Source: an uncultured Gemmatimonadaceae bacterium (lineage in GTDB: Bacteria > Gemmatimonadota > Gemmatimonadetes > Gemmatimonadales > Gemmatimonadaceae). From it: a stretch of DNA of 64,000 nucleotides. The position numbers are program-made. The stretch's first letter is position 1; each line of letters begins with the position of its first letter. Shown here in pieces: positions 24,401 to 42,400 of the stretch. The DNA is taken from the NCBI GenBank assembly GCA_963822945.1, contig CAWGJO010000004.1, positions 32,001 through 96,000 of the forward strand, given 5' to 3'.

Positions 24401-27400
24401 CGGGGATCGTGCACCGGCTCGACAAGGAAACGTCGGGACTCCTGCTCGTGGCCAAGACCGATCGTGCCCATCGCGTGCTCGGCGCCGCGCTCCAGCGGCG
24501 GGAGATCACGAGGCGGTACGCGGCCCTCTGCTGGGGGCATCTGTCCGCCGACCGCCTGGAGGTGGACAAGCCGGTGGCACGGGATCCGAACGACCGCAAA
24601 CGGATGGCGGTGGTCGCCGGCGGGCGCGAGGCCAGGACCCTGTTCTACCGGCTGGCGCGATTCGACGCCGTCGACCTGCTGCGCGCCCACCTCTTCACCG
24701 GGCGCACGCACCAGATCCGCGTCCACCTGGCGTCGATCGGGCACCCCGTGGTGGGCGACGACACGTACGGGGGCGGGGGAGGGCGGCGACTGGTTTCACT
24801 GCCGCCCAAACGGCATTTTCTCCACGCAGCCTGGTTGGCCTTCCGGCATCCGGTGACCGGAACGCCGGTCGAATTGCGCTCGCCTCTGCCCGACGACCTG
24901 CGGACGGCGGTCGTGGCCGCCGCCGGCCGTGACGCCACCTTCGGAGACGGTGACCCGCTGGAATATTTCGGCTTCTTCCGCGTCGATGACTGAGCCTGCC
25001 GAGCTACGGACGCTGTTGTTCCGCGTGGGGACCGTCGTGTACGGCTGCGACATCGCCGCCGTCCGCGAGATCGTCCCGGTCCGCACGGCCACCCGGTTGC
25101 CGGGAACGCCACCCTACGTGGACGGGCTGATCAACCTGCGGGGGACCATCCTCACGGTGATCGACCTGGGGGCGCGGATGGAGGGCCGCCGGTCGTCCAA
25201 CGAGGAGGGGTCGGTGATCATCGTCCAGGTCGGGGGGCGCCATCTGGGCCTGGTGGTCGGCGACGTCATGGATGTGATGCAGATGCGGGTCGACCCACCC
25301 CCCGAGGACCGGGGCGATGACGTGGTGCAGGGGCTGGGACATCTGGGCGACACAGTCGTCATAATAGTTGATATCCCGGCGTTGGTAGGGCAGGTGTTGC
25401 TTTGACTTTCGGTAGGTCGGTAGGTCGGTAGGTCGGTAGGTCGGTAGGTCGGTAGGTCGGTAGGTCGGCCGCATGCCCGCCGCGCATTCCGACCGACCGA
25501 CGCACGGACAAACCGCCGGGGTCTCGGCAAGACCCAACGGGCGTATTGCGGCCCGCGACAGCTTGGTCCAGACAGGAGAAACACGTGAGCCACACGGTGT
25601 TGATTTGCGACGATGCGATTTTCATGCGGACGATGGTGGGAGACATCCTGCAGTCGGCCGGGTTCGAGATCGTGGGAGAGGCCGAGACGGGGTTGCAGGC
25701 GGTGGAGAAGTACAAGCAGCTGCGGCCGGACCTCGTGACGATGGACATCGTGATGCCCGACATGGGCGGCATCGACGCCGTGCGAGAGATCATGCAGTTC
25801 GATTCGCAGGCGAAGATTCTCATGTGCAGCGCGATGGGGCAGCAGGCGTTGGTGGTCGAGGCCATCCAGGCCGGGGCCAAGGACTTCGTCGTCAAGCCGT
25901 TCCAGCCTAGCCGCGTGCTCGAAGCCGTGCAGCGCGTTCTGAGATAGTCGGAGCGTTGGATACCTCACCGTACGCCGAGCTATTCCTCACCGAAAGCCGC
26001 GAACACGTTTCGGCGGTGAATCACTGGCTGTTGGAGTTGGAGCGTGGCGCCGGCGGGGACGAGCCGGTCCGCGAGCTCTTCCGCGCGGTGCACACGGTGA
26101 AGGGGATGAGTGCCACGATGGGGTACGCCGTCGTGGCGGAATTGTCGCACGAGATGGAGACCCTGCTCGATCGGGTCCGGCACCGGACCATGGAGATCAC
26201 GCCGGAGGTGATGGACGTGCTGTTTCGCGCCGCTGACGTGCTCGAGCAAGCCGTGGAGGCGTCGGTGGCCGGACGGCTGGACGACGTGCATCCCGAGGGG
26301 GTGCTCGATCGGCTGCGGGCCATGGGGCGCGCCACGCCGCGCGCGTCGGCCGCCATCGCGAGCCTGCCGTTGGACGAGCACCTGTGGACGGTGCCGGCTC
26401 CGGACGGCCAGGGCACGGTGGTGCGTGTGCGGCTGGCGCGAGAAGCGCCGTTGCGCGGCGTGCGGGCCTTTCTCATCGTCCAGCAGCTCGAGGCGCTGGG
26501 CACGGTCACCGGTGTGTCGCCATCGCTGGAGGCCCTGCAGGGCGACCGGTTCGAGTTCGACTTCGCGGTGCGCGTGCGGACCAAGGTGGCGGCGCAGGAG
26601 CTGGAGCGCGTCGTACGGGCTGCCGGCGACGTGATGCTGGTGGCCGTCGAGGGCGCCCCGGGGTTCGGGGCCGCTCCCGCGACGCCGGAGGAGCGCCCCT
26701 CGGGGCTGCTCGCCGCCGTCGAGAGCGCGGACGCCGAGGAGCCGCCGGCGAACGGCGACGCGCCGGCGCCGCCGGCCGCGCCGATCCGCGCCCCCCGCCA
26801 CGTCCGGGTGGACCAGCGCCGCCTGGATGCCCTGATGAACCTGATCGGCGAGCTGGTGATCGCCCGCGGCCGCCTGCTGCAGATCGGCGGCCGGCTGGCC
26901 GATCCCGCGCTCGACGAGACGCTGGCGCAGGCATCGCGATTGATCGCCGATTTGCGCGACGAGATCGTCACGAGCCGCATGGTGCCGGTGTGGCAGGTGT
27001 TCGACCGGTTTCCGCGCCTCGTGCGCGACGCCGCCCGCGGGCTGGACAAGGAGATCGACTTCTCGATCGAGGGCAAGGACATCGAACTCGACCGTTCGAT
27101 GCTCGACGAGATCGGCGATCCGATCGTGCACCTGCTGCGGAACGCCGTGGACCACGGCGTGGAGACCCCGGACGAGCGGGCGCGCCTGGGCAAGCCGCCG
27201 GCAGGCCGGCTCGTGCTCTCGGCGGTGCGCGATCGATCGGCGGTCGTCATCAAGGTGAGCGACGACGGGCGGGGCATCGACCGGGCGCGTGTGCTGGAGA
27301 AGGCGAAGGCGGCGGGGTTCGTGGACGCGAGCCGGACCGACCTCAGCGACGAGGAGCTGGTGCGGCTCGTCGCGCGCCCCGGCTTCTCGACGGCCGACCA

Positions 27401-39400: not shown

Positions 39401-42400
39401 CGGGCGCAACGTCGACTCCTCGCGGCAGGCCCTGCAGCGGGCCGGCATCACGATTGCCGGCGAGGACGTGGGGATGGAGCACGGGCGCAGCGTCTATCTG
39501 CACATCGCCGATGGCCAGGTCGAAGTGCGCTCGCTCGCGCGAGGGAGTCGTGTCCTCTAAGCCCTCCGTCCTGGTGGTGGACGACAGCGCGCTCATGCGG
39601 CGCGTGATCGCGGAGCTGGTCACCGAATCGGAGGAGTTCACCGTGGTCGGCGTGGCGCGGAACGGGCGGGAGGCGATTGCCCACGTGCTGGCGCTCAACC
39701 CCGACCTCGTGACACTCGACATCGAGATGCCGGAGATGGACGGGCTGCAGGCGCTGGCGCAGATCATGCGCGATGCTCCCCGCCCGGTGGTGATGCTGAG
39801 CGGGGCCGAGACGATGGATGGGCGCGATGCCGCGCTGCGCGCGCTGGAACTCGGCGCCGTGGACTTCGTGCGCAAGCCGTCGGGCCCCATCAGCCTCGAC
39901 CTCGCCGTGGTGGGCGAGCGGTTGCGGGGCGCGCTCCGGGCCGCCGCGCAGGCGAACCTGCGCGGCCTGCAGACGCCGGTACGGCGCCCCGGCACGGGAC
40001 GCCGCGGGGGCGTGCGGCCGGCCGCGTCCCGACCCAGGCGCGCCGTGGCGATCGCGGCCTCGACCGGCGGCCCGCGCGCGCTCACGCAGGTCCTGCCGGG
40101 GCTGCCGGCGGCTCTCGACGCCGCGGTGCTCGTGGTGCAGCACATGCCGCCCGGGTTCACGCGCAGCCTGGCGCAGCGGCTCGACGCGATGGGGCCGCTG
40201 CCGGTGCACGAGGCCGAGGCGGGTCAGATCGTCCAGAGCGGGCATGTATACGTGGCGCCGGGCGGCAAGCACATGCGCGTGGCCGACGACGCCCAACCGG
40301 TGATCGTGCTCGACGAGACGCCGCCCGTGTGGGGCGTGCGACCGGCGGCCGATCCGCTCTTCCGGTCGGTGGCGGCCCTGTTCGGCGAGCGGTGCGTGGG
40401 GGTGGTACTCACCGGCATGGGGCGCGACGGCGCCGACGGGCTGCGGGCCATTCGCGATGCGGGGGGCCGCCGCGTCGTGCAGGACCGGGACACCTCGATC
40501 ATCTACGGCATGCCGCACGCCGCCCTGGAGGCCGCGGGCGCCGATCGCGTGGCGCCGCTGGCGAGCGTCGCGGCCGCCATCGTCGCGCTGCTGGCCACGG
40601 CGGGTGAGCCGGCGTGATCGACGAACACTGGGGCCTGCTGCGCAAACCGTTCGCGAACACGCCGGATCCGGCGTTCGTGTACCACTCCCCGGTGTTCGAC
40701 GAAGGATACGCCCGCCTGCTGTACGACGTCACGGATCTGCGGGGGGGCCTGTCGCTGGTCACGGGCGAGATCGGGTGCGGCAAGACGATGCTCGTCGAGG
40801 CGCTGCGCGCCCGGCTCGGCGGCACTGCCTACGACCCCTGGGTCGTGGAGTATCCGCGCCTCACCGGTGCGCAGTTGCTGCAGTTCGTCGCTGCGGCGGC
40901 CGCGCTGCCCAACCCGCCGAAGAACAAGCCGGCGCTGGTGGCGGCGCTGCGGGGCCGGCTGGCCGAGCTGCACGCCGGGGGACGGCGCCCCGTGCTGATC
41001 GTGGACGAGGCGCAGCTGGCGAGTCCGAGCCTGCTCGAGGAACTGCGGCTGCTCACGAACTTCGAGGACCGGACCGACAAGCACCTCCACGTCGTGTTGC
41101 TGGGGCAGCCGGAGTTGCGCGAGCGCGTCGTGAAGCGTCCGCAGATCGACCAGCGCGTGAGCCTTCGGTTCCATCTCGACCCACTCGATGCCGGTGACGT
41201 GCAGGCGTACGTCCTGCATCGGCTGCGTGTGGCGGGCGCGATGCACGAGATCTTCACGGCCGAGGCGCTGGCCGCCCTGGCGGCGCGGAGCGGTGGTGTT
41301 CCGCGCGTCGTGAACAACCTGGCCATGCAGGCGCTGTTCGTTGGGGCGATGCGCGGATTGCCGCGCGTCGATGAGCGACTGATACACGACGTGGCGGACG
41401 ACCGGCAATGAAGACACCCACCATCAGCTACCGCGAATGGCTCCACCGGAAGCCGACGCCGCCGGCGTCGGGCGCGCCGGTGGCGGAGCCCGGTCTGCCG
41501 TCTCCGGAAACGCCCGCGCCTGCTGGCGGGGAGCCCGACGCGCAGCGTGCCGAGCCGGTGGAGGTCGTCGGTCCCGCGCAGCCGCGGTCCGCCGCAGCGC
41601 AGGCGGCGGTCTCCGTCGCAGCGCAGGCGGCGGTCCCCGTCGCAGCGGCGGCGTCCGCCGTACCCGCGGCGAAAGCGGTGGAGCATCTGGTGTTCCGGGT
41701 GGGGCGCGAGTTGTTCGCGCTGCCCCTCGACGTGGTCGAAGAAGCGCTCGACATCGACCGCATCCAGCGCATCCCCGAGATGAACCCCACGATGTTGGGG
41801 GTGCTCACGCTGCGCGGCGCCACCGTGCCGCTGTACGCGCCGTCGATTCCGCTGGGCGTGCCCGACAGCGACCACCGGGCGGCACTCGTCTTCGTTCGGG
41901 CGAGAGGGATGGTGGCCCTCGCCGTGGACGATGTGGACGACGTGCTGGAGATCGCCGCCGACGACGTGCAGCGCCCGCCGCTGGATTTCACCGACGGCGT
42001 GTTGTCGGGCGTCGCGCGTCGTGGCGCGGACCTCATCGGCGTGCTGGATGCCGACGCGCTCATCGCCGCCTGTCGCGCCGAACCGGTGCTGGAGACCGCA
42101 TGACCAAGCCTCGTATTGCCAAGATCGTCTGGTTCCGCCTGGGCCCGGACTACTTCGCGGCCGACATCTTCTCGGTGGAGCGCGTGCTCCGCTACCAGCC
42201 GCCGACCACGGTGCCCAACGTGCCCGAATGGATCGAAGGCGTGATCGAGTATCAGGGGCGCGTGGTCCCGGTGGTGAGCCTGCGCCGCCGCTTCCAGCTC
42301 CCGGCCGTGCCGGCCACGCCCGAGACCCGCGTGCTGATTCTCAAGTCGGGCGACGAGTGGGTGGGTGTGGTGGTCGACGCCGTGCTCGAAGTCGCCAGCT

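Follow-up and report, generated by a model that had tools for sequence, protein, structure and literature searches.

What does a protein built from two copies of the ATPase core of the replication initiator DnaA do in a cluster of chemosensory and polarity genes? The gene lies in a 64,000-nt stretch of contig CAWGJO010000004.1 from an uncultured Gemmatimonadaceae bacterium (hereafter, the window). Because its two DnaA cores lack a DNA-recognition domain and sit between mglA and a gene for a PATAN-TPR protein, a replication-type ATPase has seemingly been reused for signaling. Our preferred reading, which we hold with a probability of roughly 0.55, is that the tandem protein would act inside the MglA/PATAN-TPR/Che signaling operon, most likely as an ATP-dependent switch or scaffold.

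The 652-aa open reading frame that the survey's finding described is real, and the Pfam family Bac_DnaA matches it twice (E 5.2e-88, two stretches, best 378-532). Neither DnaA_N nor Bac_DnaA_C was found among Pfam families at E ≤ 0.01, bearing out the claim that DnaA domains I and IV are missing; by Pfam and hhalign, domain II is missing as well. Aligned with hhalign to a 59-sequence DnaA profile, both modules score a probability of 100 (module 1, E 7.6e-83, profile positions 120-349; module 2, E 1.4e-74). They are 40-43% identical to domain III of the genome's own DnaA, the 40% applying to module 1 and DnaA residues 114-333. As the survey had it, the true dnaA is elsewhere: contig C20 carries one canonical gene (471 aa; DnaA_N, Bac_DnaA and Bac_DnaA_C), and PF00308 detects nothing in this genome beyond that gene and the tandem gene. 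The tandem length is indeed conserved, since 112 of the 120 relatives listed, from 1760 at E ≤ 1e-5, have 638-662 aa and the other 8 have 573-615 aa.

Two parts of the protein have no DnaA counterpart by hhalign. The middle domain, a conserved island of ~115 aa between variable linkers, opens with a conserved helix, (D/E)EFxxFLxDV..V..W. With hhalign it does not resemble domain I, II or IV of DnaA (probability 0.1), and it has no match in Pfam, NCBIfam, PDB or Atlas; judged by these searches, it is novel and specific to the family. The C-terminal tail, preceded by a variable linker, has the family consensus FFLDDEKVVWxWPDxxxRLIEELR, with E634 at 92%, K635 at 95%, W640 at 80%, R646 at 83% and E649 at 90% conservation in 60 sequences. 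On this anatomy, we lean toward regarding the protein not as a replication initiator but as an offshoot of the DnaA AAA+ core, particular to this phylum, that arose by one tandem duplication.

Could both modules work as ATPases? Read directly, the Walker A and B motifs are intact in each, as reported (GVAGVGKTH and LLLDD in module 1, GPGGTGKTH and LLMDD in module 2). Module 1 has Walker A K49, Walker B D106/D107, sensor 1 TSD, box VII R156 and sensor 2 R205. Module 2 of this genome retains Walker A, Walker B and the arginine finger R524 and has lost sensor 1 (CTAAQLP) and the sensor 2 arginine (P573). Over 60 family members, the residues retained in modules 1 and 2, respectively, are the Walker A lysine in 60 and 58, the first Walker B aspartate in 60 and 58, the sensor 2 arginine in 56 and 51, the sensor 1 aspartate in 47 and 30, and the arginine finger in 45 and 55. 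ATP hydrolysis may be dispensable, given that sensors 1 and 2 are missing from module 2 here and that close relatives with 573-581 aa are without the lid of module 1.

The single-stranded DNA-contact arginine of DnaA, which we take to be the B motif of the E. coli literature, is largely retained (34/60 in module 1, 44/60 in module 2), so nucleic-acid binding by the tandem protein is conceivable. On this basis, ATP-bound modules might, like DnaA domain III, form oligomers on single-stranded DNA or RNA, tethering the signaling complex to the nucleoid, and the hydrophobic residue kept at the H-motif position of module 2 (Ile in 39/60) would suit such a role. However, we find this very unlikely: DNA-recognition domain IV is missing, most of the 60 members have His or Arg at the H-motif position of module 1, and the mini-proteins described below are without any such surface.

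The order of the genes, CheW, CheY, CheA, CheC, TPR, PATAN, TPR-Roadblock, Roadblock, MglB-like (g00135), MglA, tandem, PATAN-TPR, CheR, CheD, CheB, is by Pfam that of the survey (Table 1). The cluster's limits are wider than it gave, with CheW and CheY (24929-25947) at one end and, at the other, genes for an AAA_22 ATPase and two CheW-like proteins (40614-42582). That the tandem gene adjoins mglA is correct, the spacer after the mglA stop codon being 3 nt instead of 4; the ATG of the PATAN-TPR gene lies 1 nt past the tandem stop. The product of this downstream gene has one PATAN domain split by an insert, not two; it matches NCBIfam NF053729 with 57 bits (cut-off 38) and is a predicted c-di-GMP receptor. 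The match of g00135 to the Thermus-type MglB model (E 9.4e-5, 14-152 of 158 aa) is under the cut-off. Cell-division (dcw) genes adjoin the cluster, and the genome encodes PilB-like and PilT-like ATPases.

Table 1. Features of the tandem gene and its neighborhood (positions in the window)
Feature	Position	Strand	Evidence
CheW	ORF from 24929, true start uncertain	+	Pfam
CheY	25546-25947	+	Pfam
CheA	25956-27929	+	Pfam
CheC	27942-28562	+	Pfam
TPR protein, 896 aa	28564-31254	+	Pfam
Second PATAN (DUF4388) + TPR protein, 380 aa	31257..32399	+	Pfam DUF4388 E 4.8e-30
TPR + Roadblock protein	32392..33234	+	Pfam TPR families, Robl_LC7 E 1.5e-8
Roadblock/LC7 protein, 115 aa	33231..33578	+	Pfam Robl_LC7 E 3.6e-7
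MglB-like Roadblock protein g00135, 158 aa	33575..34051	+	NCBIfam Thermus-type MglB, weak Robl_LC7
MglA-type small GTPase, 201 aa	34072..34677	+	Translation; weak Arf/Ras Pfam matches
Tandem DnaA-domain-III protein (P0001), 652 aa	34681..36639	+	GTG start, TAG stop; ORF and translation
Module 1 (aa 1-232), full DnaA domain III with base and lid	34681..35376	+	hhalign
Middle domain (aa 254-369), family-specific	35440..35787	+	Conserved island between variable linkers
Module 2 (aa 370-600), second full DnaA domain III	35788..36480	+	hhalign
C-terminal tail peptide (aa 625-652)	36553..36636	+	Conservation in 60 sequences
PATAN (DUF4388) with MshE-type c-di-GMP motif insert, then TPR array, 538 aa	36641..38257	+	
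CheR	about 38260-39081, start approximate	+	Pfam
CheD	ends 39560, start approximate	+	Pfam
CheB	ends 40617, start approximate	+	Pfam
AAA_22 ATPase	40614-41411	+	Pfam; NCBIfam TIGR03015-like, under cut-off
CheW-like	41408-42103	+	Pfam
Last CheW	about 42100-42582, start approximate	+	Pfam

How constant is this arrangement? At three other loci (L007, L010, L011), the gene order is identical, although the tandem protein there is only 35-44% identical. When match tables were compared by eye, mglA lay directly upstream, 505-829 nt before the middle-domain match, in 36/36 genomes and PATAN-TPR directly downstream, starting 2-40 nt past the tandem tail, in 48/48, counts that are not independent events since the genomes are related to one another. 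The claim that the ATPase is locked into an MglA/PATAN/Che string thus stands, as does that of a non-replicative tandem ATPase conserved across much of Gemmatimonadota: in a phylum sample of 401 genomes (four of which, G057, G097, G157 and G182, are unpublished and enter all four phylum tallies), the middle domain occurs in 272, MglA in 314 and the PATAN N-terminus in 290. All 272 genomes with the middle domain have both MglA and a PATAN gene, and the tandem gene was found in none of the 87 genomes, and in no family, without MglA; its distribution is nested inside that of MglA and PATAN.

In 14 genomes from four genera, a mini-protein of 60-73 aa stands in place of the tandem gene, a replacement that is new here. 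Of the tandem protein, they retain just the opening helix of the middle domain and the C-terminal tail; no AAA+ module is left. A profile HMM built from the tail of tandem proteins gave their frames 23-28 bits and the next best among 938 six-frame peptides ≤6 bits. PATAN-TPR follows the mini-gene directly in 4/4 loci examined. In one genome (G072, genus g9), the mini-gene lies beside PATAN-TPR, CheC and CheR at a locus without mglA, and the sole MglA match is 196 kb away. The mini-proteins could be decaying remnants instead of functional adaptors. Because four genera have dispensed with the AAA+ modules, these seem to form an accessory layer, and the survey's term "core part" of a polarity module does not hold. 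Its "partner of MglA" also needs revision, since the mini-genes beside PATAN-TPR and the g9 locus without mglA make PATAN-TPR seem the firmest partner.

These data bear on the possibility that the tandem ATPase is an MglA-specific regulator or effector that intervenes directly in the GTPase cycle of MglA or senses its GTP-bound form. It might, for example, take the place of RomR/RomX, the MglA exchange factor of Myxococcus. The immediate proximity and invariant upstream position of mglA would fit such a role, as would the strict co-occurrence with MglA and the finding that the tandem gene is mostly missing where only a second, lower-scoring MglA paralogue remains. Nevertheless, the survival of the g9 mini-gene beside PATAN-TPR counts against it, and orthologues share 73-96% identity for MglA and 29-81% for the tandem protein, with no sign of matched change. 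We therefore rate it as unlikely.

Might the protein instead regulate DnaA? The survey proposed coupling to replication in the manner of Hda, in which one or both modules would dock on DnaA domain III and an arginine finger would change DnaA-ATP levels, linking polarity or chemosensory state to initiation. The proposal draws on homology: both modules resemble domain III of the DnaA encoded in this genome, their box VII arginines are conserved, a separate Hda was not found in this genome, and the neighboring dcw genes could be added. We regard it as distinctly unlikely. The Hda model gives 137 bits, under its cut-off of 194.8, and the chain begins at domain III, leaving no space for an N-terminal clamp-binding motif. 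Of the 401 phylum genomes, 129 gave no match to the gene, unlike what is expected of an essential replication regulator, and four genera lost both AAA+ modules yet retained the peptides. Relatives are also fused to signaling domains, which points to signaling over replication: P0199 joins the tandem to a receiver domain (REC), P0202 and P0211 have MshEN before two DnaA-III modules, and proteins named Sumerlaeota or Hydrogenedentota join a TPR array to DnaA-III. In P0194, the same tail sits behind a ~300-aa acidic linker.

How would a switch or scaffold within the operon work? Both AAA+ modules would bind ATP, module 1 being the better conserved in the residues for hydrolysis and module 2 in the arginine finger. 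They would govern the presentation of two short conserved peptides, the first middle-domain helix and the EKxVWxWPD..R.IEEL tail, to the neighboring PATAN-TPR and possibly to MglA. The probable output would be to set the polarity of a machine at the cell pole, type IV pili for example.

Among the closest known systems is DnaA itself (PDB 8bv3, 8btg, 1l8q/2hcb, 2z4r): alignment of each module covers all of domain III, its base as well as its lid, and brings Walker A/B, sensor 1, box VII and sensor 2 into register, and the whole protein exceeds the TIGR00362 cut-off (400 bits against 343.9) because it carries two modules in one chain. Unlike DnaA, it is without domains I, II and IV, adds its own middle domain and tail peptide, and is encoded in a signaling operon; in an unrooted tree, one branch (SH-aLRT 98%) separates 64 canonical DnaA rows from 86 non-replicative modules, those of the tandem among them. 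Hda is likewise a DnaA-derived AAA+ protein without a DNA-binding domain and itself no initiator. However, Hda has one module only, of about 230 aa, and a clamp-binding motif at its N-terminus, whereas the tandem protein is not extended there. At E ≤ 1e-5, no PDB entry bearing the name Hda matched it. In a tree, E. coli Hda did not join the tandem modules, but its branch was long and unsupported.

STAND and ORC/Cdc6-type NTPase switches carry TPR sensor arms, and here too a nucleotide switch accompanies TPRs, within a single chain in the relatives named Sumerlaeota or Hydrogenedentota and in neighboring genes in this cluster. The likeness is in working principle only; the ATPase falls in the DnaA branch, and no domain specific to STAND proteins was detected in it. 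The EEVD tails of Hsp70 and Hsp90 dock on TPR clamp domains; by analogy, the conserved acidic C-terminal peptide (..R.IEEL-R), on a flexible linker and adjacent to a TPR protein, may do likewise, although its core is W.WPD, one residue follows EEL and docking is putative.

In Myxococcus xanthus, the Frz chemosensory system acts on the MglA/MglB polarity module (PMC4316618), likewise a Che-type pathway together with MglA and Roadblock-type MglB proteins; there the parts are scattered over the genome and no AAA+ partner is described. In the present cluster, they lie in a single run of genes that includes a DnaA-derived ATPase and no MCP gene. PATAN proteins have already been linked to MglA/MglB genes (PMC4316618; PMC11580455). 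In cyanobacteria, the PATAN-REC regulators PixE and PixG bind the pilus motor PilB1 and serve as adaptors through which a sensory pathway sets the polarity of type IV pili (PMC9090330). In contrast to PixE and PixG, the PATAN domain here has no receiver domain; it is joined to TPRs and a c-di-GMP motif and paired with the tandem ATPase.

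In the tandem protein (P0001, 652 aa), DnaA domain III occurs twice, each time complete. In profile comparisons (hhalign) with 59 canonical DnaA proteins, residues 1–232 and residues 370–600 each align to an entire domain III, base and lid (probability 100 for both; E 7.6e-83 and 1.4e-74), and residues 232–378 and the C-terminal 68 residues have no counterpart in the full-length DnaA profile (probability 0.1 and 4.3, respectively). The AAA+ set of Walker A/B, sensor 1, box VII and sensor 2 is found twice, Pfam Bac_DnaA (PF00308) matches in two stretches (293.8 bits versus a gathering score of 23), and neither DnaA_N nor Bac_DnaA_C gives a Pfam match at E ≤ 0.01, which bears out the survey's finding of two DnaA/Hda-type modules without domains I and IV. 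The chain starts directly at domain III; the DnaA of the same genome does have domain I (DnaA_N). To that DnaA, modules 1 and 2 are 40% and 43% identical, and to one another 37.5%. The best solved relatives are domain III of Bacillus subtilis and Aquifex DnaA, and no PDB entry named Hda matches at E ≤ 1e-5. That the protein serves as a nucleic-acid anchor is a reading that we consider very improbable.

Both halves were also said to retain Walker A and B motifs, and across a 60-sequence alignment of the family the Walker A lysine and the first Walker B aspartate are each present in 60 sequences in module 1 and 58 in module 2. The sensor 2 arginine is kept in 56 and 51, the sensor 1 aspartate in 47 and 30 and the box VII arginine finger in 45 and 55, respectively. 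Judged by these counts, ATP binding is probably a constant feature of the family. Module 1 best preserves the hydrolysis set and module 2 the arginine finger, a split in motif conservation that would fit a composite site shared by the two modules. Both sensor 1 and the sensor 2 arginine have been lost from module 2 in this genome, and close relatives of 573–581 aa are without the module 1 lid.

Two variable linkers (top-residue frequency 0.30–0.33) interrupt the chain. Behind each of them conservation rises again, first in the middle domain (0.53) and then in the C-terminal tail (0.56), where E634 (92%), K635 (95%), W640 (80%), R646 (83%) and E649 (90%) stand out. The protein conforms to the plan of its family, which is module 1, middle domain, module 2 and tail over about 640–660 aa. 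The middle domain has no usable match in the ESM Atlas, none in NCBIfam or Pfam and only chance-level rows among PDB sequences (E 0.25). Its derivation from DnaA domain IV or I, as a remnant, is unsupported: hhalign comparison with domains I, II and IV came back empty.

The tandem gene belongs to a Che/MglA/PATAN string (table) that is flanked by ileS-dksA-lspA-lspA-rluD on one side and the division genes mraW-ftsI-murE on the other. The window has a G+C content of 70%, and public records give Gemmatimonadota names to relatives of its proteins. Packing is tight, with several adjacent genes overlapping by 4 or 8 nt or separated by 1–3 nt. The tandem gene was reported to lie 4 nt downstream of mglA; it does follow mglA directly, at a distance of 3 nt, and its stop codon is separated by 1 nt from the ATG of the gene for PATAN-TPR, the downstream neighbour.

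Genes of the Che/MglA/PATAN string, with positions counted along the window
Feature	Position	Strand	Assigned with
CheW	ORF from 24929	+	Pfam/NCBIfam
CheY	25546-25947	+	Pfam/NCBIfam
CheA	25956-27929	+	Pfam/NCBIfam
CheC	27942-28562	+	Pfam/NCBIfam
896-aa TPR protein	28564-31254	+	Pfam/NCBIfam
PATAN/DUF4388 + TPR	31257-32399	+	Pfam/NCBIfam
TPR + Roadblock	32392-33234	+	Pfam/NCBIfam
Roadblock	33231-33578	+	Pfam/NCBIfam
MglB-like Roadblock protein	33575-34051	+	Pfam/NCBIfam
MglA	34072-34677	+	Pfam/NCBIfam
Tandem protein	34681-36639	+	Pfam/NCBIfam
PATAN-TPR	36641-38257	+	Pfam/NCBIfam
CheR, CheD, CheB	to 40617	+	Pfam/NCBIfam
AAA_22 ATPase	40614-41411	+	Pfam/NCBIfam
Two CheW-like proteins	to 42582	+	Pfam/NCBIfam

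The string, with CheA, W, Y, C, R, D and B, contains no MCP gene between 24929 and 42582; the genome has its four MCP genes on other contigs (C20, C24, C27 and C35). Contigs from a sediment metatranscriptome library (X20), 90–97% alike, partially cover the Roadblock, mglA, tandem and PATAN genes (33200–38300) and span both the mglA/tandem junction (34567–34776) and the tandem/PATAN junction (36551–36676). They are weak evidence that the operon of a relative is transcribed, since DNA carry-over could also yield them, and the uncovered parts are uninformative.

Several other features of this region were noted. A tandem pair of signal peptidase II (lspA) genes, at 22907–24011, directly precedes rluD and the Che string. 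The AAA_22 ATPase gene overlaps cheB by 4 nt and is followed by the two genes for CheW-domain proteins; its product resembles an XrtA/PEP-CTERM-associated ATPase at 178.7 bits, under the 324.5-bit cut-off, and looks like a further unexplained ATPase of the same string. The genome also has a second MglA paralogue (C21:379800–380381; 56% identical), whose match contains one TAG, and a third MglA-like stretch (C36:16864–17180) that is divided between two frames and may be a pseudogene. Two MglA matches are found in most genomes of the phylum sample.

How widely is this arrangement conserved? A search of the whole library recovered full-length relatives down to about 30% identity, and full-length alignments extend to 28%. 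A locus search with a 10-sequence alignment returned mostly canonical dnaA, and of the 80 loci kept only 8 matched along both modules. These eight loci, in named genomes, are all from Gemmatimonadota, and a low-GC outlier of the family likewise has a closest relative named Gemmatimonadetes. The family-specific middle domain (E ≤ 1e-5) is present in 272 of 401 Gemmatimonadota genomes: 74/93 scored in family f1, 161/166 in f2, 5/5 in f3, 5/7 in f4, 2/2 in f5, 0/30 in f6, 20/70 in f7, 4/4 in f8 and 0/23 in f9–f12. MglA (314/401) and the PATAN N terminus of the downstream protein (290/401) follow the same pattern across families. MglA is found in every one of the 272 genomes with the tandem gene, and the 87 genomes without MglA all lack the tandem gene, counts that come from mutually related genomes and are not independent events. 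The four phylum tallies include four unpublished genomes (G057, G097, G157 and G182).

Adjacency was assessed by comparing printed match coordinates by eye. In 36/36 genomes with two MglA paralogues, the higher-scoring one shares contig and strand with the middle-domain match and lies 505–829 nt upstream of it, a gap that corresponds to the length of module 1. In 48/48 genomes, the PATAN gene starts 2–40 nt past the last matched tail codon. At three loci whose tandem proteins are 35–44% identical (L007, L010 and L011), the entire stretch between CheY and CheR, both included, recurs in ORF sizes and order. Apparent fusions of the tandem and PATAN genes, seen in genome tables as frames much longer than 652 aa, were discarded as stop-to-stop artefacts of high GC.

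Some genomes have a cluster-type MglA but no tandem gene, and canonical dnaA is their sole PF00308 match. Directly 3′ of mglA, where the tandem gene would be, these genomes carry an ORF encoding a mini-protein of 60–73 aa, which consists of a short acidic start, the motif GEFxxFLxD..A.RVE, a proline-rich linker and ..IVEWP....IEELR. The tail profile of the tandem family scores 23–28 bits on the mini frames, against at most 6 bits for the runner-up among 938 six-frame peptides, and the same four frames also come first with a profile of the first middle-domain helix. By parsimony, the mini-genes would be deletion derivatives of the tandem gene. Full-length mini-genes occur in 14 genomes of the phylum sample from four genera (6/6 in g4, 3/3 in g21, 1/1 in g17 and 4/5 in g9), and PATAN-TPR follows directly in 4/4 loci examined. 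These loci occupy the same chromosomal slot (ileS-dksA-lspA-rluD ... TPR) and are trimmed to differing extents. The complete Che-Roadblock-MglA string is preserved in G036 (locus L093), only rluD-MglA-mini-PATAN-TPR is left in G168 (L094) and G114 (L095), and CheY, CheC, mini-gene, PATAN-TPR and CheR are preserved in G072 (L127), a locus without mglA. As deletion derivatives, the mini-genes point to two peptides, the first middle-domain helix and the C-terminal tail, as the indispensable parts and to PATAN-TPR as the constant neighbour.

The survey's finding had cast the tandem protein as a partner of MglA. Gene order is in line with that proposal, with mglA upstream in 36/36 genomes; against it, the mini-gene of G072 is accompanied by PATAN-TPR and the sole MglA match of that genome is 196 kb away. 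The tie of the tandem gene to PATAN-TPR is tighter than its tie to MglA, and we think it unlikely that the tandem protein regulates MglA directly.

PATAN-TPR has a single PATAN domain, split by an insert and followed by TPR repeats; the domain was reportedly defined by Makarova et al. in 2006. The insert (aa about 55–110) contains two R.GD/E.LV..G...Q.. repeats and matches NF053729, the NCBI model for an MshE-related c-di-GMP-binding motif (57 bits; cut-off 38). In the upstream PATAN paralogue the insert is present only in degenerate form. PATAN regulators are described as binding the pilus motor PilB1 in cyanobacteria (PMC9090330), and in Myxococcus PATAN proteins are named among candidate MglA-linked pilus regulators (PMC11580455). 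The linkage of PATAN, MglA and MglB genes was pointed out in 2006 and 2014 (PMC4316618). One PilB-like and two PilT-like ATPases are encoded in the genome studied here.

Relatives of the tandem protein combine the DnaA core with other domains. P0199, which together with P0194 and P0198 belongs to the most divergent subfamily, has the tandem architecture plus a receiver domain at its C terminus. P0202 and P0211 (1,900 aa), one relative of which carries the name Fermentibacteria, consist of MshEN, a first DnaA-III, a long spacer rich in Glu, Ala and Lys that resembles a coiled coil, and a second DnaA-III. Many proteins of 1,360–2,150 aa named Sumerlaeota or Hydrogenedentota have TPR arrays and one C-terminal DnaA-III module, and others join DnaA-III to zinc ribbons or to HEAT repeats and DUF835. 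The fusion partners REC, MshEN and TPR are the same kinds of domain as are found in the neighbours of the tandem gene in the window, and the tandem form and these three kinds of fusion together occur in proteins that bear the names Gemmatimonadota, Fermentibacteria, Sumerlaeota and Hydrogenedentota. In P0194, the same tail (..VVWHWPD..RI..) stands behind an acidic linker of ~300 aa, as might be expected of a tethered docking peptide. Multidomain DnaA-III proteins of other candidate phyla (P0202, P0211, P0367, P0391, P0392, P0217 and P0394) are often annotated as DnaA.

In trees of domain III sequences, the family's module 1 copies cluster with one another, as do its module 2 copies, and both clusters lie jointly apart from DnaA; with fusion-protein modules added, one branch (SH-aLRT 98) parts all 64 canonical DnaA rows from all 86 non-replicative modules. 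These groupings argue that the tandem duplication is old and occurred once. E. coli Hda was placed among the DnaA rows without support. E. coli DnaC was rejected as a root, as it attached to a fast-evolving module 1 lineage by long-branch attraction.

The tandem gene is neither a replication initiator nor an Hda. As a whole, its product scores 400 bits against the NCBI DnaA equivalog TIGR00362, above the 343.9-bit cut-off only because two modules lie in one chain, and for this reason many family members are mislabelled "chromosomal replication initiator protein DnaA" in public annotation. Against the Hda model TIGR03420 it reaches 137.4 bits, under the cut-off of 194.8. The true dnaA had been placed elsewhere, at oriC; our check covered its presence, and the genome has one complete dnaA, on contig C20 and apart from the Che/MglA operon, with no Bac_DnaA match beyond it and the tandem gene. 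An anti-phage defence ATPase was also considered and rejected, since the PADLOC matches are short, at the level of the P-loop and ≤36 bits, with no stretch passing alone.

What might the tandem protein do? We give a probability of roughly 55% to its being an ATP-dependent switch or scaffold of a PATAN-TPR/MglA/Che signalling complex, acting via the two short peptides. The domain anatomy, its conservation, the order of the genes, the nested phyletic distribution, the deletion derivatives and the fusions are observations; ATP switching, docking of the peptides on TPR repeats and a pilus output are inferences. A bolder picture, which we regard as speculative and rather doubtful, is that an old and unrecognised family of signalling ATPases without a role in replication arose from the DnaA AAA+ core, and that the Gemmatimonadota tandem form is an ATP-gated adaptor that would pass the two peptides to a c-di-GMP-sensing PATAN-TPR and so set or switch the pole for MglA and the type IV pilus machine; its DnaA-like surfaces might also sense or influence DnaA, coupling polarity switching to the replication cycle. 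Signalling use of the core is suggested by the position of the gene in a Ras-like GTPase/c-di-GMP/chemosensory operon and by the REC, MshEN and TPR fusions of other candidate phyla. Full-text literature searches found no paper linking a DnaA-like ATPase to MglA or PATAN, and the main text of Wang et al. (2016) on MshEN mentions neither PATAN nor DnaA. If the proposed role is correct, bacterial polarity systems would gain a new component. The mini-proteins offer a direct experimental handle, as they single out the two important peptides. To our knowledge, polarity systems have not been studied in Gemmatimonadota.

Finally, the tandem protein can be set against the known uses of its fold. An N-terminal sliding-clamp-binding motif is the hallmark of Hda, whereas the tandem protein has no N-terminal extension, its residues 1–10 aligning to the start of DnaA domain III. 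An Hda-like link to DnaA is a role that we consider improbable given this difference. In the textbook view, the ATPase core of DnaA serves replication only, in DnaA itself, in its inactivator Hda and, more distantly, in helicase loaders; a conserved signalling role, if true, would add a functional branch that is new to the initiator clade.
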